This document shows positions 3,154-30,553 of a stretch of DNA of 64,000 bases, in pieces (the first letter of the stretch is position 1; every line of letters begins with the position of its first letter). Origin of the DNA: an uncultured Trueperaceae bacterium (lineage in GTDB: Bacteria > Deinococcota > Deinococci > Deinococcales > Trueperaceae). The stretch lies in contig CAVSGP010000004.1 in assembly GCA_963727505.1 (NCBI GenBank), positions 704,001 through 768,000 of the forward strand. Reading direction: 5' to 3'. The translations under genes and the position numbers were made by a program. The notes beneath the pieces were generated by a model. It was given only the letters and a program-made list of their open reading frames with translations, made no database searches and was not told where the DNA came from.

Positions 3154-4380
3154 TCAGTCTTCCCCGAGCAGCGCCGCCTTGAACGCCGCGAAGCGATCCT
3201 CGGCCAGACTGTCGCGGATGTCCTCCATGAGGCGCGCCATGAAGCGCAGATTGTGCACGGTCACGAGCTGCTGCGCGAGCCGCTCGTTGGCCTTGAACAG
3301 GTGACGCACGTAGCTGCGGCTGTAGCTCCGGCAGGCCGCACAGTCGCATCCTTCCTCTAGCGGCCGCAGATCCTCGGCGAATCGCGCGTTGCGCAGGTTG
3401 AGACGGAAGGTGGCGAGGCGCTCGCCGTCGTCGCCCCGACGTACGAAGGCCGCGCCGTTGCGGGCGTTGCGGGTCGGCGCCACGCAGTCGAAGGTGTCCA
3501 CACCGCGCTCGACGGCCTCGAGGATGCTGGGCACGTCCCCGATGCCGAGCAGATGCCGCGGCTTCGCTTCCGGCAGCTCGGGAACCGTCCAGTCGAGCAC
3601 CGCGTACATGTCCTGCAGCGTGCTGCCGAGGTTCCCGCCGATGGCCATGCCATCGAACGGCATGGCCCCGATGGTGGCAGCACTCTCCTGGCGCAGGTCG
3701 CGGAACGCGCCCCCCTGCACCACTCCGAACAGCGCCTGCGGGTAGCCGTGCCTCGGCGTGGAGCGCTCGAAGGCGCGCAGGCTGCGCTCGGCCCAGCGGT
3801 GCGTGCGCTCCATCGAACGGCGGGTGTACTCCTCATCGTGCAACGGGCTGGTGCACTCGTCGAAGGCGAGCACCATGTCGGCGCCGAGGGCGCGCTGCAC
3901 CTCGATGGACACCTCGGGCGAGAAGTCATGGAGGCTGCCGTCGATGTGGCTCTTGAAGCGCACCCCCTCCTCGCGGATGCGCACCATCGAGCTGCCCCGT
4001 GGCAGGCGTGGCGGCGCCTCGCCGGGGAAGATCGAGGCCACCTTGCCGACCCCGTGCTCGATGGAGGCACCCAGGGAGAACACCTGGAAGCCGCCCGAGT
4101 CCGTCAGGATCGGGCCGTGCCAGTTCATGAAGCGGTGGAGGCCGCCGTGCCGCTCGACGATCTCCGCGCCCGGGCGCAGGTAGAGGTGGTAGGTGTTGGC
4201 GAACAGGAGCTGGGTCCCGGCCGCGGCTACCGCGTCCGGCGCCACGCCCTTGACCGCCGCCTGCGTTCCCACCACGACGAACGCCGGTGTGCGTACCGCG
4301 CCGTGCGCCGTCTCCAGGGTCCCGAGCCGCGCCGCGCCGCGGCGCTCGTGCAGGGTGAAGGTGGGGGCATTCGGGTCCAT
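3154..4380 (-). CDS. tgt: tRNA-guanine transglycosylase
   Basis: NTYHL, TDSGGFQVFSL, QGG, PRHLLGIG, FDCVAPTRNAR and CxCxxC...HN zinc site. Confidence 0.95.
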   Translation of the reverse strand: MDPNAPTFTLHERRGAARLGTLETAHGAVRTPAFVVVGTQAAVKGVAPDAVAAAGTQLLFANTYHLYLRPGAEIVERHGGLHRFMNWHGPILTDSGGFQVFSLGASIEHGVGKVASIFPGEAPPRLPRGSSMVRIREEGVRFKSHIDGSLHDFSPEVSIEVQRALGADMVLAFDECTSPLHDEEYTRRSMERTHRWAERSLRAFERSTPRHGYPQALFGVVQGGAFRDLRQESAATIGAMPFDGMAIGGNLGSTLQDMYAVLDWTVPELPEAKPRHLLGIGDVPSILEAVERGVDTFDCVAPTRNARNGAAFVRRGDDGERLATFRLNLRNARFAEDLRPLEEGCDCAACRSYSRSYVRHLFKANERLAQQLVTVHNLRFMARLMEDIRDSLAEDRFAAFKAALLGED

Positions 4381-4525
4381 GGTGGCGGCCCGCCATTGTA
4401 CCCGCCGGCCGTTGGCGGCGCCGTCCTGTAGCGCGACCCTTGGTGTCCACGCACGGCTCGGCTCACAGCGCGACAACGGAGGGCCCACTTTGCCCGATTT
4501 CACGTCTGCTTAGCACGGCACGCCC

Positions 4526-4554
4526 TATGATGCACGCATCGGGCATTGCCCGAT
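4526..4554 (+). promoter_or_regulatory. Putative -10 box (TATGAT) and 5' hairpin of the riboswitch leader
   Basis: TATGAT at 4526-4531, then hairpin atcgggc-att-gcccgat; the same arrangement occurs at 6051-6079. Confidence 0.5.
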
Positions 4555-4630
4555 CTTGGAACGCGATGAAACCCGTCTCCTAACGTGGGCGCTTGAGACG
4601 GGTGGAGCGAGTAGCGCAACCGGCCAAGGT
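4553..4630 (+). ncRNA. c-di-GMP-II riboswitch aptamer 1
   Basis: GGAA..GCgAUGAA, stem acccgtctc/gagacgggt, loop UGGGCGCUU, GGAGC.AGUAGCGCAACCG; closing helix cttgg/ccaag; pseudoknot GCGCU/AGCGC. Confidence 0.85.
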
Positions 4631-4737
4631 GAGTCAATCCTCATCCTCAGCCGAACACGCGTCCACAACGGCTCCGCAAGGGGTCGTCGAGGGAGTATCC
4701 GGTCGTGCCACGAGTTCATGCTCGCGCACGCAAGCCG

Positions 4738-4822
4738 GGACCCCCCGGAAGCGATGAAGCCTGTCCTGCACTTGGGCGCTTGGGACAGGTGGAGCCAGTA
4801 GCGCAACCGGCCAGGCGGGTCC
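4738..4822 (+). ncRNA. c-di-GMP-II riboswitch aptamer 2 (tandem with aptamer 1)
   Basis: GGAAGCGAUGAA, stem gcctgtcc/ggacaggt, UGGGCGCUU, GGAGCCAGUAGCGCAACCGGCC; closing helix ggaccc/gggtcc. Confidence 0.85.
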
Positions 4823-4891
4823 TTTGTGGTCCAACGCAGCACCGTCGGTCAGGCGCCCCGAATCGTTCGAGAGGCTTCGAGGCGAGGACCG

Positions 4892-5908
4892 ATGGTGGCC
4901 GACAGCGCGTCAGGCAAGAGCACCGCAGTCCTGCACAGGGTTCGCCGCAGGCGGATCGCCGGCTGGCTTCGCATCGTCTACCTGGCCCTGGCGGCGGCCG
5001 TCGTCCTGTCGGAAGCGGGCTGTTCGTCCGTTGGGACGGAGGTCCCGGCGAGCCTCACGAGCGCATCTGACGTTCCGCAGCCGATGTTCGGGGCCTACAC
5101 GGACGGCGGCGTCTGGCAGGGCATGGAGCCTGTCCGGCAACTCGAAACGTTGCTCGGACGCAAGCTCGATATCGTGCACTGGTTCATGAGTTGGGACACG
5201 CCCTACGACATCGCCCTCGTCGAAGCGGCCAGCGCCGACGGCCGACGTCCTCTCATCACCTGGGAGCCGAACCACCAGGCGGTCCAGGCCATCGCCGCGG
5301 GCACGTACGACGGGCTCATCCGAGATTTCGCAGACGGCGTGCGTGCCACGCCCGGGATCGTGTACGTTCGTCCGTTCCCCGAGATGAATGGGGATTGGGT
5401 GCCTTGGAACGGAGACCCCGCCGCCCTGGTGGCGGCCTGGCGCCACATGGTGACCGTGTTCCGGGCCGAGGGAGCGGACAACGTGCGGTGGGTCTGGAGC
5501 CCCAACGTGACGGACCAGCCCAACACACCTGCCAACGCCATGGAGCGCTACTACCCTGGCAGCTCTTACGTCGATGTGTTGGCACTGGACGGTTACAACT
5601 GGGGTACGACAACGAGCTGGAGCACGTGGCAGAGCTATACAGAGATCTTCGCGCAACCGTACGCGCGCATCACCGCACTGGGGCCGCAACCGGTGTGGAT
5701 CACGGAGATCGCCTCCGCCAGCCAGGGCGGAGACAAGGCCGCGTGGGTCGCGAACATGCTCAATACGTCGGCCTTCCCCCGCATTCAGGCCCTGGTCTGG
5801 TTCAACCAGAACAAGGAAGCGGATTGGCGGATCGACAACTCGGCCAACGTCATCCAGGCGGCTCGCGTCAATCTTGGCCCCGGAACCGCCACCCTTGCGA
5901 GCCGATGA
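4892..5908 (+). CDS. GH26 glycoside hydrolase, probable lipoprotein
   Basis: ITWEP, RPFPEMNGDW (acid/base Glu), YYPG..YVDVLALDGYNWG, PVWITE (nucleophile); hydrophobic segment then AGC. Confidence 0.88.
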   Translation: MVADSASGKSTAVLHRVRRRRIAGWLRIVYLALAAAVVLSEAGCSSVGTEVPASLTSASDVPQPMFGAYTDGGVWQGMEPVRQLETLLGRKLDIVHWFMSWDTPYDIALVEAASADGRRPLITWEPNHQAVQAIAAGTYDGLIRDFADGVRATPGIVYVRPFPEMNGDWVPWNGDPAALVAAWRHMVTVFRAEGADNVRWVWSPNVTDQPNTPANAMERYYPGSSYVDVLALDGYNWGTTTSWSTWQSYTEIFAQPYARITALGPQPVWITEIASASQGGDKAAWVANMLNTSAFPRIQALVWFNQNKEADWRIDNSANVIQAARVNLGPGTATLASR

Positions 5909-6078
5909 GCCACGAGGCATGCTGACGTCGTCGAGCCAGGGCATCCTGTCAGAGAAGGTACCGGCTCCGCCCTTCCCCCGGGGACGCTGGATGAAGTCCG
6001 GATGAACCTCGCCGTTGGGAGATCTGTCACAATCTCACCGGGCACCGTCGTAGGATTCATGAGTCGGGCAAGGCCCGA

Positions 6079-6152
6079 CCTTGGAAGCGATGAAGCCCGT
6101 TTCCCAACGTGGGCGCTCGAGACGGGCGGAGCGAGCAGCGCAACCGTCCAGG
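6079..6152 (+). ncRNA. c-di-GMP-II riboswitch aptamer 3
   Basis: GGAAGCGAUGAA, stem gcccgtttc/gagacgggc, UGGGCGCUC, GGAGCGAGCAGCGCAACCG; closing helix cttgg/ccagg. Confidence 0.83.
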
Positions 6153-6208
6153 CAGATTCGTAGCTGCCCATCGTCGGTCAGGCGCACCTAGTTCTTCGCG
6201 AGGCGACG

Positions 6209-7207
6209 ATGGCGATGGTGTCTCAGTCGAACGAGAGTGGTGAACGGCGTAGCCGCGCGAGCGGCCGGCGCTTCACGACGGCGATCGCGATCACGATCGC
6301 CGTGCTCGTGCTGGCAACCGGGTGTTCGAGCGTGGCCAGCCGACCGCCCCGAACCGTCGCCCGCCCATCGGATGTCCGGCCGATGTTCGGCGCCTTCACC
6401 TACGGTGGCGTGTGGCAGGGGATGGAGCCCGTTCGCCAGCTCGAAGATCTGCTCGGACGCAAGCTCGACGTGGTCCACTGGTACATGAGCTGGGACACGC
6501 CCTACGACGTCGCTCTCGTGAAGGCGGCCATCGCCGGCGGGCGCCTGCCCATGATCACCTGGCAACCCCACCACCAGACCGTCTCCGACATCGCTTCCGG
6601 AACCTACGACGGCACCCTCCGCAGTTTCGCCGACGGCGTGCGGGCCACGCCCGGCCTCGTCTACGTGCGCCCCTTCCCCGAGATGAACGGTGACTGGGAA
6701 CCCTGGAACGGACAGCCGGCTACCTTCGTGAGGGCGTGGCGCCACATGGTCGACGTCTTCCGAGCCGAAGGCGCCGACAACGTGCGGTGGGTCTGGTCGC
6801 CCAACGACACCGACCAGCCAAGTACCCCTGCCAACGCCATGGAGCGGTACTACCCCGGTAACGCCTACGTCGACATCCTTGCTCTGGACGGCTACAACTG
6901 GGGAACGAGCCGGAGCTGGAGCACATGGCGCAGCTTCAGCGACATCTTCGCCCAGCCCTACGCCCGCATCACCGCCCTCGGACCTCAGCCCGTGTGGATC
7001 GCCGAGGTCGCCTCGACCAGCAAGGGTGGCGACAAGGCCGCCTGGGTCGCCGGCATGCTCGACACCAAGCAGTTCCCCCGTATCCGAGCGCTGATCTGGT
7101 TCAACCACAACAACGACATGGACTGGCGCCTGGACAATTCGCTCGCCGTGGTCCAGTCCGCACGGGCGAACCTTGCGCCCAACCTCGACGCGGCCGCCAG
7201 CCGCTAA
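6209..7207 (+). CDS. GH26 glycoside hydrolase lipoprotein (paralog of 4892-5908)
   Basis: LATGC lipobox-like motif; RPFPEMNGDW, DGYNWG, PVWIAE; highly similar to the upstream paralog. Confidence 0.88.
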   Translation: MAMVSQSNESGERRSRASGRRFTTAIAITIAVLVLATGCSSVASRPPRTVARPSDVRPMFGAFTYGGVWQGMEPVRQLEDLLGRKLDVVHWYMSWDTPYDVALVKAAIAGGRLPMITWQPHHQTVSDIASGTYDGTLRSFADGVRATPGLVYVRPFPEMNGDWEPWNGQPATFVRAWRHMVDVFRAEGADNVRWVWSPNDTDQPSTPANAMERYYPGNAYVDILALDGYNWGTSRSWSTWRSFSDIFAQPYARITALGPQPVWIAEVASTSKGGDKAAWVAGMLDTKQFPRIRALIWFNHNNDMDWRLDNSLAVVQSARANLAPNLDAAASR

Positions 7208-7329
7208 GCGTTCGCGCGCCCATCGAAGTCCATCGCGACTCGTCCACCGGACAGCTCGATCTCGACGCGGTGCTGACGGTCCTGAACCTACACCTCTCCC
7301 TCACCACCGACGTCAGCCCCGACGGCCGG

Positions 7330-7359
7330 CTCTACCTCACGACGCTCTACCTCACGACG
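7330..7359 (+). repeat. 15-bp tandem duplication (ctctacctcacgacg x2)
   Basis: Direct reading of the sequence. Confidence 0.9.
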
Positions 7360-7381
7360 GTGAATGGCACACTGGTTCGCC

Positions 7382-10144
7382 TCAGCGCGCGCTGGCGCGC
7401 GCGCTCGACGCCACGGAGGCGCGCGAGCCCGAGAAGAGCCGTTGCAGCACCGCGCTGTACATCCCTGCGTCCTCGATCCCGTAGGAGGCCACGATCGCCT
7501 GGCTCCGCTGGTAGGCGGTGGCCAGGCCGAGCTTCCCGGCGGCGACGTCCGCGCTCTCCGCCACGAGCTGTCGTTCGGGTGCCGCCAGTGACGTCGGATC
7601 TACCCGATAGGCAGCGTACGCGCTGCCCAGGGCGTCGACGAGCGGCCCGAGGCGCAGCATGGCCTCGACCGGTCCCTGCAGGTTCCCCACGATCTGGTCC
7701 TTCCGGGTTACGCCGTGCACCGGGTTGATGTACAGGGCGTAGGCGAAGGCGTCGTCCTTGGCGGCCGGCTGCGCCAGCGCCCACGCCAGCTTCGCCGCAC
7801 CGGCGCAGACCGAGAAGTCGGGATCGAAGACGTTGAACGACCCGCTCAGGAGGTGCGGGTTGTACAGAGGCTTGTTCACGTCCTCGGAGACTGCACGCAG
7901 CAGCGTCAGCGCATCGGACGTCATCTGCGAGAGCCCCTTGTCGCCGGTCTGGCCGACGGCAAGCGGATTGAGATAGGACTCGTTGATGAGCACTTGAAGC
8001 AGAAGCCGCGCTGGCACCCCGTAAGCGGTGGACGCCTCTTCGATGTAGGGTTCGATCGGAGCCAGCCGACCCAGCATGAGCAGCTCGAAGTGGTTCAGGG
8101 GCCGGTAACCCTCGGCCGACCCGGGCAGGGTCTGCGGGGCCTCGCTGGGCTGTCGCAGATAGGCGGGCCGGCAGTAGTCCGAGAGTGCTGGCCGAGGTTC
8201 GTAAGACGGGGTAGCGGCGGCCGCCCCGTCGGCTCCCCCGCCGCCACCGCCGGCGGCGATCCGGGCGAAGGCCGCGGGCGCGGCCAGGGCGACCGCTCCC
8301 GTCACGGTAGCGTGAGCACGTGGAGCCTCCAGCCGGCGCGCGGAGCGCGACACGGGATCGAGCGGTAGCGCGATGGAAGCCTGGAACACGGGGATCGTCG
8401 CGCTCCCGGCCGGTTCCAGCAACAGCGCAGGGGCGACCTGCGCCGCATGCAAGGGCAACCACTCGTGCTGTGCCATGTCGAGGCGCGGCGTGTGCTCCAG
8501 CAGTCGCTGGGTGGCAAGCGGATCCGCTCCCGAGGCCGGCGCCAGCGCCAGGATGGCCACGAACACCGCCGTCAGGGACGTCAGCATGGTGGCGGCCGTA
8601 CCCAGCGTTCGTTTGTCGACGCCGCGCGCGGTGGGCCGCTCCCAGGCCACACCCTGGGTCCCCTTGACCGCCCTGCGGCTCGCTGCGCGACGCTCCCGGA
8701 AGAACGCGGGGACCACGCTGGAGGCCGCGGCGACGAAGCTGACGGGATTCGCCACCTTCAGAAGCATGTAGGGCAACCAGGTCTGGAGCGTCCTCCGGCC
8801 CGCGAACCGCAGGGCCGGAGCTCGCGCCCGGCGACCGTCGCGCGCCTGAGCGTAGAAGCCGGCGAAGGTCATGAGTCCCGTCGCGGCCAGGTCGATTCCG
8901 ACCCACAGAGCCAGGTTCCGCGCCAACGCGCTCGACCCCATCGCCCCCAACACGCCCAGCGCCAGCATCACCGGCACCAGAAGCAACAGCAGCAGCCCGA
9001 GAAGGTTCTCGAGCTGCGCCCCGAAGAGCGTGAAGCGCACGTTGGGAGTCATGGCGCGGTCGCCGGCCTCGCCCAGGACCCGCTTCAACGCGTTCTGGAT
9101 ACCGCCGCCGTGCCAGCGCTCGATCTGCCGCAGGTAGCCGCCGGCGTGGGCGGGATCCTCCGTGTACATCTGCGCGTCCCCCACGAAACGTGCGTTCCCT
9201 CCGCGACGGAGCTCGATCACGTCCTCGCGGTCGAAGGCCTGGTCGAAGGGGACCTCCTCCCCCTCCACGACGATCCTGAAGCCGCGCGCAGCGAGCGCGG
9301 CCGGCGACCAGCGCTCGACGGTGCGGGGCAACGCCTGCACGGCGAGGGTCAGGTCGTGATCCTCGGTGAGTGTGTCGGGCGACATCGGCAGCACGTCCCG
9401 GCGCACCGTGAAGCCGCACCCGACCACCGTGAACAGGCGGCTGGCCCCCCACAGGTCGCCGTCGCCCGGCGTGCGGACCTGCCCCCGCCGCAGCACCGAA
9501 GCGAAGGCGTACTCGGCCGAGCGGCCGGCCGCGATGAAGCGCTGCGCCCGCTGAGCCCCGGCGGGCACGAAGGACGTCACCGAACCGGACTGGAGGGCAT
9601 AGTCCTCCAGCACCGGCCTGCCGCTGTGCCAACGCAGCCGGTAGAAGTTCCGCCGCAGCGCGGCGATGAAGCCGCGGTCGAACACGGTGTCGCCGTCCAC
9701 CAGGAGCACGCGCTCGGCGGTCAACAGCGAGCTCGTCACCAGGTTGTTGACGGCCTCGGACTTGGCCGTGCGCTGCCGATAATCCAGCACCACCACGGCC
9801 ATCGCTTTCCCGGGATGGCGCCAGCGCTCGACGGTGGCAAGCAGCTGCGGCGCTGGTGCCCTGGCCAGACGCTCGAAGCCGAACTCCTCCAGGGTCGCCG
9901 TCACCACCGCGTGGGTACCGTCGCTCGAGCCGTTGACGCTGACCGCCAGCTCGTCCGGGAGGGAACTCTGCGTCAACAATGAGGCCAGCGCCCGTCGCGC
10001 TCCGGCCTCCTCGTTGTACATGGGTGAGACGACGGCCAGCCTGTCGGGCCCGCAGACGGGCAGACTGCGATCAGGGACCGTGCTGAGCGCCGCGTTGAGA
10101 AGGGTTGTGGGCATGGCGGACAGGCCGAAGAAGTTGGGCATCAC
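7382..10144 (-). CDS. Processive GT2 glycosyltransferase fused to a C-terminal lytic transglycosylase (SLT) domain
   Basis: PMYNEE, SSDGT, KSEAVN, DGD, TED and QIERW motifs, then TM helices; C-terminal EEASTAYGVP..LINES...GLSQM SLT motif. Confidence 0.85.
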   Translation of the reverse strand: MMPNFFGLSAMPTTLLNAALSTVPDRSLPVCGPDRLAVVSPMYNEEAGARRALASLLTQSSLPDELAVSVNGSSDGTHAVVTATLEEFGFERLARAPAPQLLATVERWRHPGKAMAVVVLDYRQRTAKSEAVNNLVTSSLLTAERVLLVDGDTVFDRGFIAALRRNFYRLRWHSGRPVLEDYALQSGSVTSFVPAGAQRAQRFIAAGRSAEYAFASVLRRGQVRTPGDGDLWGASRLFTVVGCGFTVRRDVLPMSPDTLTEDHDLTLAVQALPRTVERWSPAALAARGFRIVVEGEEVPFDQAFDREDVIELRRGGNARFVGDAQMYTEDPAHAGGYLRQIERWHGGGIQNALKRVLGEAGDRAMTPNVRFTLFGAQLENLLGLLLLLLVPVMLALGVLGAMGSSALARNLALWVGIDLAATGLMTFAGFYAQARDGRRARAPALRFAGRRTLQTWLPYMLLKVANPVSFVAAASSVVPAFFRERRAASRRAVKGTQGVAWERPTARGVDKRTLGTAATMLTSLTAVFVAILALAPASGADPLATQRLLEHTPRLDMAQHEWLPLHAAQVAPALLLEPAGSATIPVFQASIALPLDPVSRSARRLEAPRAHATVTGAVALAAPAAFARIAAGGGGGGADGAAAATPSYEPRPALSDYCRPAYLRQPSEAPQTLPGSAEGYRPLNHFELLMLGRLAPIEPYIEEASTAYGVPARLLLQVLINESYLNPLAVGQTGDKGLSQMTSDALTLLRAVSEDVNKPLYNPHLLSGSFNVFDPDFSVCAGAAKLAWALAQPAAKDDAFAYALYINPVHGVTRKDQIVGNLQGPVEAMLRLGPLVDALGSAYAAYRVDPTSLAAPERQLVAESADVAAGKLGLATAYQRSQAIVASYGIEDAGMYSAVLQRLFSGSRASVASSARASAR

Positions 10145-10349
10145 GAAGTCCTATCCGTCTTAGGGCTCTCGGTCGACAGCGGCGGGCGCTGCAAGCGGAC
10201 GAACGCGCGTTTCGCGCGCCCATCGAGCCGCAGCGGCCCAATCCGAATCATCTGGCTTCCTGTGTATCATCGCGTTCCCTGCCCTGTCGCCCAGCCGTCA
10301 CAGCCCTGTGGCCTGGGTGGTTTACGATCGTATGATTTGGGAGGTGCGG

Positions 10350-10973
10350 ATGGCACTTCATATCAGCGGTAAGCTCGTGGCCGTAGGCCTCGTCCTGGCC
10401 GCCCTGATCACCGCATTCAGCGCCCCCCGCAGCGTGCAGGACCCGGGCGTCGCCCTGGCCATCACCCCCACCGCTACCGTCCGCTCCACGCCGGCCTCGC
10501 CGGATGCCGCCCGGACCAGCTCGGTGGGACCCGTGGCCAACCCCGTGTTCACGCTGCGGGCCACAGGCTACAACTCGATGGTCGATCAGACCGACGCCAC
10601 ACCGTTCATCACCTCGACGGGACAGCGTACCCGTTTCGGGATCATCGCGGTGAGCCCCGACCTGTTGGGTCATGATCTGCCGTATGGCAGCCTGGTGCGG
10701 ATCCGCGACCTCGGGAACTACTACACCGGGCGCGGATACGGCAGCTACCAGAGCCTGCTCGACAGCCAGGGACTGTTCATCGTCGAGGACACCATGCACT
10801 ATCAGAAGCGCGACCAGATCGACATCTGGTTCAGCGACTACGCCAGCGCGGTGAACTGGGGCATGCGCAAGGTGCGCGTCGAGGTCATCCGTTACGGGCG
10901 CAACGGGCCCAAGCTCGAGCCCTCCCGCGCCAGCGACTTCAGCGGCACGCCCCGCCTGACGGCCTCCCGCTGA
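10350..10973 (+). CDS. Secreted 3D-domain (MltA-like) cell-wall protein
   Basis: ATGYNS..QTDATPFITSTG, IIAVSPD, PYGS, VEDTM...IDIW; GGAGG SD and TATGAT upstream. Confidence 0.85.
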   Translation: MALHISGKLVAVGLVLAALITAFSAPRSVQDPGVALAITPTATVRSTPASPDAARTSSVGPVANPVFTLRATGYNSMVDQTDATPFITSTGQRTRFGIIAVSPDLLGHDLPYGSLVRIRDLGNYYTGRGYGSYQSLLDSQGLFIVEDTMHYQKRDQIDIWFSDYASAVNWGMRKVRVEVIRYGRNGPKLEPSRASDFSGTPRLTASR

Positions 10974-11106: not shown

Positions 11107-12288
11107 GTGCGCAGCCTCGTACCGTACCTGGCCTGGCGGCACGTTCGCCGGCGCGGGCTGCAGTCGGGCCTCACCGTGCTCGGCGTGGCGGTCGGCGTGA
11201 TGGTCCTGATCGTGGCGCTGTCGCTGACCAACGGCTTCGTAGACGAGCTGATCCGCAGCACGCTCAAGGCCACCCCGATGCTCACGCTCGAGAGCTACGT
11301 CTCCGGGCAGACCCTTGCGAACGACCCGAAGGTCGGGCGCGCGCTGGCGGAGCGCACCTCGGTCACCGCCGTCGCCCCCTTCCTCAGCACGCAAGCGCTC
11401 ATCGCCCGGCGTGCCAGTGCCAGCCTCGGCATCACCGCCCGCCAGGGCTACACCCAGATCGTCGGCATCGACCCCTCCCTGGAGACGAAGGTCCTGGACC
11501 TCCCGATCCTGAAGAAGCAGGCGACCGCCCTCGCGCAGAAGGACGGCATCGTGCTCGGCGCCTCCCTGGCGCAGCAACTCGGCGTGCTCACCGGCGACAA
11601 GGTCGTGCTACGCGACATCACGGGGCACACCGCCGAACTCACCGTGGCGGGCACCTTCCGGGTCGGTAACGAGCTCATCGACGGCGTCGCCTCCTACATG
11701 TCGCTGGCGAACCTCCAGCAGTACATGCACGTGGGCGACCAGATCAGCGGGTACCACCTGCGCCTGGCCGATCCCCAGGGCGCTGCCGGCGTCGGCGTGA
11801 CGCTCGGGGACGCCTTCGGACTGCGCCCGGTGTCGTGGGACAGCCTGTTCGCCAACCTCATCAGCCAGCTCCGGCTGCAGAAGGCGGTCATCGCGGTGGT
11901 GGTGTTCCTGATCGTGCTGGTCGCCGCCATGGGGATCGCCAACATCCTGGTGCTGACGGTCTCGGAGAAGACCGAAGAGATCGCCATCCTGCGCGCGCTG
12001 GGCGCGACCCGGCGCCAGATCCTGGCCGTCTTCACCGTCGAGGGTCTGCTGCTCGGAGCCACCGGCACCCTGCTCGGCGCCCTGCTGGGGCTGGGCGTGA
12101 GCGCCTACTTCCGCCTGCAGCCCTACCCCCTGCCCGGCAACCTCTACTTCATCACCCAGCTCCCCGTGCGCCTGCAGGCCACCGACGTGCTGTGGGTCTG
12201 CGGTCTTGCCATCGGAACCAGCGTCCTGGCGGGGCTCTTCCCGGCGAGGCGGGCAGCCGACCTCGACCCCGTCGACGTGCTCCGTTGA
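11107..12288 (+). CDS. LolC/E-FtsX family ABC permease
   Basis: GVAVGVMVLIVALSLTNGF, EKTEEIAILRALGA, LFPARRAA..DPV. Confidence 0.88.
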   Translation: MRSLVPYLAWRHVRRRGLQSGLTVLGVAVGVMVLIVALSLTNGFVDELIRSTLKATPMLTLESYVSGQTLANDPKVGRALAERTSVTAVAPFLSTQALIARRASASLGITARQGYTQIVGIDPSLETKVLDLPILKKQATALAQKDGIVLGASLAQQLGVLTGDKVVLRDITGHTAELTVAGTFRVGNELIDGVASYMSLANLQQYMHVGDQISGYHLRLADPQGAAGVGVTLGDAFGLRPVSWDSLFANLISQLRLQKAVIAVVVFLIVLVAAMGIANILVLTVSEKTEEIAILRALGATRRQILAVFTVEGLLLGATGTLLGALLGLGVSAYFRLQPYPLPGNLYFITQLPVRLQATDVLWVCGLAIGTSVLAGLFPARRAADLDPVDVLR

Positions 12289-12973: not shown

Positions 12974-13051
<78 letters not shown>

Positions 13052-18097: not shown

Positions 18098-18172
18098 TGG
18101 CTCGGCGGGTAGGATTCGAACCTACGACCAATCGGTTAACAGCCGACCGCTCTACCACTGAGCTACCGCCGA
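18098..18172 (-). tRNA. tRNA-Asn(GTT)
   Basis: Minus strand TCGGCGG-TAGCTCAG...CTGTTAAC...GGTTCGAATCC...CCGCCGA-GCCA; promoter TTGCAC-N17-TAGACT at 18243-18215. Confidence 0.97.
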
Positions 18173-30476: not shown

Positions 30477-30553
30477 GCGCCCGTAGCTCAGCCGGATAGA
30501 GCGTTCGCCTCCGGAGCGAAAGGTCACAGGTTCGAATCCTGTCGGGCGCACCA
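30477..30553 (+). tRNA. tRNA-Arg(CCG)
   Basis: GCGCCCG...CGGGCGC-ACCA; anticodon arm TTCGC-CTCCGGA-GCGAA; GGTTCGAATCC. Confidence 0.97.

Follow-up and report, generated by a model that had tools for sequence, protein, structure and literature searches.

A probable beta-glycan cassette of c-di-GMP-II riboswitches, GH26 lipoproteins and a GT2-SLT fusion in Trueperaceae

The cassette and its distribution

A 64,000-nucleotide stretch of DNA from an uncultured Trueperaceae bacterium (CAVSGP010000004.1, positions 704,001-768,000; hereafter the window) carries a gene cassette in which riboswitch aptamers of the cyclic di-GMP-II (c-di-GMP-II) class precede two genes for GH26 lipoproteins, GH26a and GH26b. 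Both of these genes converge on a gene for a fusion of a GT2 synthase with a lytic transglycosylase (SLT) domain. The host genome comprises 3.26 Mb at ~70% G+C and is 97.4% complete. That the aptamers, the GH26 genes and the GT2-SLT gene form a real module can be said with high confidence. We further consider it somewhat more probable than its alternatives taken together that this is an accessory cassette of Trueperaceae for making and trimming a beta-glycan at the surface or outside the cell, with the hydrolases under riboswitch control. The polymer itself, its role as a shared substrate of synthase and hydrolases, and the role of the SLT domain are the parts of this explanation that we infer.

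In the proposed scheme, the GT2-SLT protein would be a membrane-embedded processive family 2 synthase whose C-terminal lytic transglycosylase domain lies outside the membrane, where it would cut peptidoglycan locally and let the polymer pass or become anchored. The lipoprotein GH26 enzymes would cut the synthase's own product. Riboswitches of the c-di-GMP-II class would govern their mRNAs, GH26a through a tandem pair and GH26b through a collapsed hybrid. In both leaders, a strand that complements the pseudoknot-forming P3 loop of the aptamer overlaps the strand that is predicted to pair with the ribosome-binding site and start codon. Ligand binding would lock the aptamer, and the freed strand would then close the start region and stop translation. 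In the absence of ligand, the aptamer could take up this strand by pairing, leaving the start region open. High c-di-GMP would silence the glucanases and the polymer would accumulate, and low c-di-GMP would release the glucanases.

Within the window's family, 76 of 127 genomes have the fusion gene, as against none of 236 genomes from the five other families of the phylum. When 128 family genomes were sorted by content, both GT2-SLT and GH26 were found in 71, GT2-SLT only in 6 (completeness 79-100%), GH26 only in 1 (a 41%-identical match) and neither in 50. The two genes therefore occur together in 71 of the 78 genomes having either, against the possibility raised in a preliminary description of this DNA that they do not co-occur in relatives. 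These family tallies include one unpublished genome (G325), which has the 3D-like gene described below and carries neither GT2-SLT nor GH26; its omission shifts each denominator by one.

The arrangement is also retained at the level of individual loci, for which a set of 61 related loci was compared. GH26 lies downstream of GT2-SLT in 35 of the 40 loci with at least 3 kb of downstream sequence, and is found in 46 of the 61 loci, 17 of which have two copies. Where the contig includes 250 nt or more of the GH26 leader (39 loci), a covariance model search detected an aptamer in every case, and at least two aptamers in 22 of these loci; 7 further GH26 loci end too early to judge. GT2-SLT and GH26 are adjacent without the 3D-like and lolCE genes upstream in six loci (L034, L037, L039, L062, L064 and L067). 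One of these, L039, has GT2-SLT, two aptamers and GH26 co-directional on one strand, which is the opposite relative order to that of the window.

Aptamers and leaders of the GH26 genes

Aptamers were identified by Rfam cmscan, using the gathering scores of RF01786 (c-di-GMP-II; 53.5 bits) and of the variant model RF03169 (40). Two full-model matches to RF01786 (model positions 1-84) exceed the gathering score, and both precede GH26a on the forward strand as a tandem pair: the distal aptamer 1 at 4550-4633 (64.1 bits) and the proximal aptamer 2 at 4738-4821 (71.4 bits, E 4.6e-14). Aptamer 3, at 6074-6157 (+) ahead of GH26b, scores 51.2 bits against RF01786, which is below its gathering score, and passes RF03169 with 44.7 bits. 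The preliminary description had counted three c-di-GMP-II aptamers before the GH26 pair and had proposed a check against the Rfam model. The tandem pair survives this check as described, but the third copy proves to be a sub-threshold hybrid, and the set is better read as one tandem pair plus one collapsed pair.

Several features distinguish aptamer 3. It keeps GCGCAACCG where the RF03169 consensus is GCGAGACCG, and in its core word, AGUAGCGCAACCGGCC, a C replaces the first U and a U replaces the first G of CCGGCC. The two letters altered here are each kept in 66 of 67 aligned orthologous aptamers, as read by eye, and P1 is down to ~5 pairs. In locus L011, whose GT2-SLT is 88% identical to that of the window, two aptamers stand ahead of each GH26 gene. 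When the regions between the GH26 genes are aligned, the window tracks the distal aptamer of L011 as far as the invariant core and then switches to the proximal one, of which it retains the 3' P1 strand and the platform; ~190 nt are missing. On this alignment, a deletion of ~190 nt merged two tandem aptamers into the hybrid aptamer 3, which would represent a natural case of tandem riboswitches collapsed into one. At least the interval 6045-6401 is spanned, with 0 to 3 differences, by contigs from 4 DNA runs of 2 studies (one run may be the source sample), which shows that the hybrid is no peculiarity of this assembly.

The genome contains 10 c-di-GMP-II aptamers in all, three tandem pairs among them. 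The P3 loop and 3' strand of the pseudoknot read GGGCGC and GCGC in 8 of these and GGGCAUC and GAUGC in the other 2, and compensatory changes are seen in 10 of the 20 predicted pairs of helices P1 to P3. Distal aptamer orthologues are present in the 22 related loci with at least two aptamers. Separately, contigs from metagenome runs X1 and X2, with 90% likeness to the window, show one joint, at window positions 4657-4742, that skips 84 nt between the tandem aptamers. A second joint (window 4822-6163) runs from the end of aptamer 2 to just past aptamer 3 with 12 other letters between, as in a single-GH26 relative. Aptamers seem to be common sites of recombination.

The seven aptamers outside the window (C2:272031-272277, C5:154249-154334, C9:145230-145503, C15:12024-12106 and C4:785209-785293) include two of the tandem pairs. 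Their targets are a lipoprotein with Big_7 and a Pel9A-like beta-helix, a GH99-like and metallophosphoesterase protein, a beta-helix gene with domains in three frames (possibly frameshifted) and two small secreted proteins that belong to no family. Judged by the predicted products, the riboswitch regulon is a set of exported glycan-active proteins. The same genome has 21 GGDEF and 10 EAL domain matches. No PilZ match was found in this 97.4% complete genome, and no c-di-GMP receptor protein was found on or beside the synthase by the PilZ search and Pfam; other receptor types were not searched. The riboswitches are the only c-di-GMP effectors visible in these searches. The earlier remark that the synthase has no PilZ domain is borne out, as Pfam gives only GT2 and SLT families on this protein, and extends to the genome as a whole.

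The leaders suggest how these aptamers might control expression. Neither U-tract terminators nor canonical sigma-70 promoters were found at 4300-10500. In the minimum free energy (MFE) fold of the spacer and platform of aptamer 1 (4634-4737, +), CCUCAUCC can pair with the 3' strand of P1 and is followed by a hairpin, and a CCCCUCAUC...AGCCG element is kept after the distal aptamers of relatives. Proximal leaders place the start codon 50-100 nt past the aptamer, and each has a Shine-Dalgarno-like (SD-like) word. In the MFE fold of the GH26a leader (platform 4822-4891, +) with the aptamer folded, CACCGUCGGUC at 4840-4850 pairs with GACCGAUGGUG at 4887-4897, which places the start codon inside the duplex. 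The adjoining segment at 4851-4859, AGGCGCCCC, is complementary to the P3 loop of the aptamer. Likewise, in the platform of GH26b (6158-6208, +), CAUCGUCG pairs with CGACGAUG with the start codon inside.

A conserved word, (A/G)GCGCC(C/U)C, lies beside or within the 5' strand that pairs with the start region, and complements the P3 loop UGGGCGCUUGG (RNAduplex). Pairing of leaders with the P3 loop has a mean energy of -17.4 kcal/mol and a mean Z of -2.24 relative to mononucleotide shuffles, with Z below -2 in 24 of 42 proximal leaders. The J strand of the aptamer was considered as the partner of the GH26 leaders and rejected in favour of the P3 loop (mean Z -0.22; 0 of 42 below -2). The C9 and C2 leaders, by contrast, pair with the J strand. 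Among 30 leaders examined by downstream-only MFE folding, 27 have upstream partners for the SD/start region, and in 24 of these the loop-complement site overlaps the partner span, although this test is coarse in that a span is the minimum-to-maximum range of partners. The anti-SD word CCUC or CCCC pairs with GAGG or GGGG in 12 leaders, where the variable position forms U-A in 5, C-G in 3 and U-G in 2, and is broken in 2. A cleaner case is the C9 leader, in which a 10-bp hairpin has the start codon in its 3' arm and a perfect 11-nt complement to the J strand overlaps its 5' arm.

Given that the module is real, we judge it fairly probable that c-di-GMP acts as a translational OFF switch on the GH26 glucanases, because a ligand-locked aptamer could not hold the middle strand, which would then close the start region. 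The platform would be of a type in which a downstream mimic of the aptamer's pseudoknot strand doubles as an anti-start strand.

Hydrolases, synthase and alternative readings

The GH26a gene (4892-5908, +; its start preceded by GAGGA) and the GH26b gene (6209-7207, +) encode proteins of 338 and 332 aa that match PF02156 (Glyco_hydro_26) with 38.4 and 43.1 bits, respectively, at a cut-off of 20.2. Both have lipobox-type N-termini (...SEAGC... in GH26a, ...LATGC... in GH26b) and they share 71% identity, in agreement with their earlier description as two paralogous GH26 lipoproteins. A phmmer search of all PDB sequences with GH26b yields, as its nearest characterised relative, the GH26 module Lic26A of Clostridium thermocellum endoglucanase H (2bv9_A, 2vi0 and others; E 1.2e-51, residues 67-316), and GH26 mannanases appear only at E 2.7e-09 or weaker. 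The Glu of PEMNGDW in GH26b aligns with E109 of the 2bv9_A chain and that of WIAEVAS with E222, which we take to be the catalytic pair of Lic26A. Lic26A is described as a beta-1,3-1,4 mixed-linkage endoglucanase (PMC5849603). By sequence, GH26a and GH26b are therefore close to this lichenase, closer than to the mannanases, and are predicted to be of the beta-1,3-1,4-glucanase type. This fits the beta-glycan system suggested in the preliminary description and, on the difference between the two E-values, makes it unlikely that these enzymes act only on external mannan. The resemblance to Lic26A covers ~250 residues with both catalytic Glu residues aligned. However, Lic26A is a cellulosomal module accompanied by CBM11 and dockerins, whereas the window proteins are single-domain lipoproteins encoded beside a synthase.

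The GT2-SLT gene (7382-10141, -) encodes 919 aa. As first described, it joins a GT2 synthase to a lytic transglycosylase domain: Pfam matches it to the GT2 families PF13641 (28.0 bits) and PF00535 (27.4 bits) and to the SLT family PF01464 (32.9 bits, cut-off 21.3). Invariant residues in an 80-sequence alignment include DGD150-152, TED260-262, Q340, R343 and W344, and E722-S723 of the SLT domain. From these 80 homologues an AlphaFold2 model was made (mean pLDDT 86.2), which Foldseek matches to hyaluronan synthases (HAS), yeast and Candida chitin synthases (Chs1), BcsA and plant CesA, at E 2e-09 to 1e-06 and probability 1.00. The E-values for BcsA and CesA differ from those for HAS and Chs by no more than two to three orders of magnitude. 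A phmmer search against PDB gave no solved synthase and one weak SLT match only (E 0.031).

Hydropathy analysis identifies two strong segments (371-408 and 513-545) and two weak ones (411-429 and 460-482). The loops at 432-460 and 484-516, which carry 7 and 9 Lys/Arg residues, flank the weak segment 460-482, and by the positive-inside rule we infer that this segment is an interface helix. The protein would then have three membrane passes (371-408, 411-429 and 513-545), with the GT2 domain cytoplasmic and the SLT domain extracytoplasmic.

This protein family is small and isolated. An exhaustive HMMER search of 1.84 billion sequences returned 98 representatives at E 1e-3, among them ~22 full-length fusions. 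Another ~10 of the 98 are unfused GT2-type proteins of 476-517 aa with 25-30% identity; the 7 that were checked had no names, and the sugar specificity is therefore not narrowed by them. The ESM Atlas holds only generic GT2 clusters for GT2-SLT, the NCBI label of the fusion is only 'transglycosylase SLT domain-containing protein', and NCBIfam has no match for GH26a, GH26b, GT2-SLT or the 3D-like protein. A literature search, with most subscription journals outside its scope, found no paper tying a lytic transglycosylase to a family 2 exopolysaccharide synthase. Dedicated SLT/GH23 enzymes are present in flagella and secretion systems, where they presumably open peptidoglycan locally. The window protein resembles these specialised lytic transglycosylases of envelope-spanning machines in having an SLT/GH23 domain dedicated to one machine, and differs from them in that the same polypeptide also holds a polysaccharide synthase. 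It is plausible that the SLT domain opens a path through peptidoglycan, and likewise plausible that the synthase product is a biofilm polymer.

Several relatives carry additional cassette members, namely a GSDH-type protein, a DUF4394-like protein, a protein with Chlam_PMP repeats or a CE4 enzyme. In all three GH26-type relatives scanned with Pfam (L030, L047 and L062), GH26 is separated from GT2-SLT by a gene, co-directional with GH26, for a secreted GSDH-type beta-propeller (~410 aa, PF07995 at E 1e-27 to 1e-38), and similar open reading frames (ORFs) were seen by eye at the same place in L014 and L046. Over the full genes of relatives, the PF07995 matches range from E 1e-27 to 5e-44. The window has just 175 nt between GH26b and GT2-SLT. 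A tblastn search with the L014 protein gave a weak likeness of ~50 residues at ~7174-7329 (+; E 0.005 in a 401-nt search), on the right strand and in the right place. The closest relative, L011, carries this gene broken across two frames (L011:12760-14067). A GSDH homologue with 33% identity is encoded elsewhere on the same contig. It is possible that this gene, common to most relatives, was almost wholly deleted in the window and left a candidate relic of its N-terminus. Some relatives have an extra 296-aa lipoprotein between GSDH and GT2-SLT (L030:12733-13623), with a DUF4394 match (E 5.7e-06) that is below cut-off.

A number of observations weigh against the beta-glycan explanation and the OFF switch that is part of it. 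The genomes and leaders are kin, and the counts given above overstate their independence; the span-overlap test is coarse, as noted. In nested folding of 30 leaders, the SD/start region has a mean unpaired probability of 0.34 when the aptamer is enforced and of 0.29 both in the unconstrained fold and with P1 blocked, and 8 leaders are more open with the aptamer enforced and 1 shows the opposite, which leans against an OFF switch; nested folding cannot represent pseudoknot loop pairing and does not separate bound from free states, and was not used to assign direction. The synthase has three predicted passes plus interface-type helices and no N-terminal passes, which is fewer than in solved channel-forming synthases. 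Its top fold matches, HAS and chitin synthase, use UDP-N-acetylglucosamine (UDP-GlcNAc), yet no action on GlcNAc polymers is known for GH26. Five low-GC relatives (L018, L021, L022, L025 and L033; 43-47% G+C) have GT2-SLT and neither GH26 nor an aptamer. These show a second arrangement, in which an ORF of 506-550 aa follows GT2-SLT on the same strand in 4 of the 5 loci, with Chlam_PMP repeats in the 3 that were scanned (L018, L021 and L033); in L018 a convergent GSDH-type gene comes after this ORF. The GSDH-type gene that most relatives have in the operon is lost in the window. L037 has a CE4 polysaccharide deacetylase gene (L037:12519-13673; PF01522, E 2.3e-10) right after GT2-SLT, which hints at an N-acetylated polymer in that lineage. 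Finally, no outer-membrane export or scaffold component was found in the cassette, which holds the two GH26 genes, GT2-SLT and the candidate GSDH relic.

In one alternative the riboswitches would be ON switches, with the GH26 enzymes made together with the polymer at high c-di-GMP as BcsZ-like accessories for synthesis or chain-length control. The lean of the nested folding (8 of 30 leaders against 1) counts in favour of such an arrangement, as do two further points: synthase-dependent systems commonly need their own glycanase for production, and the c-di-GMP-II examples of Clostridioides are mostly ON. We nonetheless regard it as rather unlikely, given that the SD/start hairpin, itself self-contained, can form alongside a folded aptamer, that the ligand-bound state would leave no free aptamer strand to open this hairpin, and that only one complement to the aptamer core is conserved, which overlaps the strand that sequesters the start. 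The C9 leader, moreover, is an explicit three-strand OFF arrangement.

Two other readings concern the polymer. The GH26 proteins might be foraging enzymes for external plant or algal beta-glucans, belonging to a c-di-GMP-controlled secreted set, in which case their adjacency to GT2-SLT would reflect inheritance as one cassette and the two would share no substrate. Lic26A is itself a plant-biomass enzyme, other c-di-GMP-II targets in this genome are secreted and glycan-active (the Pel9A-like beta-helix lipoprotein and the GH99-like protein), and there are the five GT2-SLT loci that lack GH26. This foraging role is made improbable by the co-occurrence counts (both 71, GT2-SLT only 6, GH26 only 1, neither 50), by an adjacency that is kept across genomic contexts and in both relative orientations, and by a cassette that has no sugar transporter or catabolic genes. 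Still less probable, in our estimate, is that GT2-SLT makes a GlcNAc-containing or wall-linked polymer (chitin-like, poly-N-acetylglucosamine-like, hyaluronan-like or a secondary cell-wall polymer), with the SLT/GH23 domain acting on the product or linking it to peptidoglycan. The fold matches to hyaluronan and chitin synthases and the CE4 gene directly after GT2-SLT in L037 are what this would predict, and some GH23 enzymes cut chitin. However, PDB titles give mannans, beta-1,3-xylan and mixed-linkage glucans as substrates of GH26 members, and not GlcNAc polymers, and the BcsA and CesA E-values are near those of HAS and Chs, such that the fold does not fix the sugar. The catalytic base motif of GT2-SLT, furthermore, reads TED, as in cellulose-type synthases, where chitin, HAS and NodC types have EDR. 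Because the UDP-GlcNAc-type fold matches and the L037 CE4 gene stand opposite the known range of GH26, the identity of the polymer is unsettled within the preferred reading of a cassette that makes and trims a beta-glycan.

Related systems and chromosomal surroundings

In function, the nearest known counterparts of the proposed beta-glycan cassette are c-di-GMP-activated beta-glucan synthases, BgsA and BcsA. Compared with synthase-dependent exopolysaccharide systems (Bcs, Pga, Pel, alginate), the cassette shows neither a c-di-GMP receptor protein on or next to its synthase, as far as the PilZ and Pfam searches reach, nor an outer-membrane export or scaffold component. In the Bcs system, the BcsA synthase is paired with an endoglucanase. 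BcsA-BcsZ and the BgsBA system of Sinorhizobium meliloti share with the window a processive GT2 synthase that has D, D, D and QxxRW motifs. The window differs from both in that no protein receptor is evident and c-di-GMP would be sensed by RNA in the hydrolase mRNA. Its hydrolase is GH26 where BcsZ is GH8, its synthase carries an SLT domain and only three predicted passes, unlike BgsA and BcsA, and its cassette has no BgsB/BcsB-like partner or outer-membrane component. BgsBA makes a mixed-linkage beta-glucan under c-di-GMP control, and BgsA, too, has no PilZ domain (PMC5567048, PMC10374906).

The aptamers match the c-di-GMP-II class (RF01786) in sequence and structure, and the tandem arrangement is also known for this class: one report counts 59 doublets and 9 triplets of tandem c-di-GMP-II riboswitches, mostly before surface-anchor genes in Paraclostridium (PMC9481103). 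What differs here is the Trueperaceae host, the GH26 glucanase targets, the putative translational platform that mimics a pseudoknot strand, and the one natural hybrid copy. A control search also gave a c-di-GMP-II match in Deinococcus radiodurans. Within the same limits of journal coverage, no paper was found whose title concerns such an association of c-di-GMP-II riboswitches with glycosyl hydrolases in Deinococcus or Truepera. Every part of the cassette comes from a known family, and no description of the combination and its regulatory logic was found in the literature searched.

If the explanation is true, c-di-GMP would control a polysaccharide through the hydrolase mRNA, not through a synthase receptor, in a lineage that is rich in cyclases and phosphodiesterases and has no PilZ. 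The fusion of a synthase with a lytic transglycosylase would bear on the passage of a nascent polymer across the thick Deinococcota wall, or on its attachment there. A bolder and distinctly tentative version is that Trueperaceae have an RNA-only branch of c-di-GMP signalling, in a genome without PilZ, in which pseudoknot-mimic translational OFF riboswitches silence surface glycanases (GH26, the Pel9A-like lipoprotein and the GH99-like protein) at high c-di-GMP and the polymer comes from a minimal one-protein machine, a processive synthase with its own peptidoglycan-cutting domain. Were this so, matrix build-up would be set by stopping degradation and not by activating synthesis.

The cassette is flanked by tgt (3154-4503, -) on one side and, on the other, by a gene for a membrane-anchored 207-aa protein (10350-10973, +), which is divergent from GT2-SLT, and a lolC/E-type permease gene (11107-12288, +). 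A Pfam scan recovered tgt and lolC/E, placing the block between these genes as initially reported. The 207-aa protein had been described as a 3D-domain protein divergent from the synthase. Its position is as stated and its fold and motif are 3D-like, but it has no Pfam support, matching no family even at E 1 (PF06725 included), and its relation to the synthase is positional only. Foldseek with its model (pLDDT 71.0) returns double-psi beta-barrels, including bacterial expansin domain 1 (E 1.4e-04), PA4485, YuiC (4e-03) and MltA (2e-02), and an alignment read by eye has three invariant Asp residues in AVS(P/R)D, EDT and (I/V)D(I/V)WF. On the model, the label '3D-like' is fair at the level of the fold.

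The further proposal that this protein is a component of the system does not hold. Its gene is a near-universal housekeeping neighbour, found in 122 of 127 family genomes, those with and those without the cassette alike. The lolCE, 3D-like and tgt genes are contiguous in 7 of 7 loci from genomes that have no cassette or have it elsewhere, two of which share the window's genus. Because these genes adjoin where the cassette is absent, the cassette is, on this comparison, an insertion between the 3D-like gene and tgt. Elsewhere in the window, Rfam identifies tRNA genes at 12974-13047 (+), 18101-18172 (-) and 30477-30550 (+).

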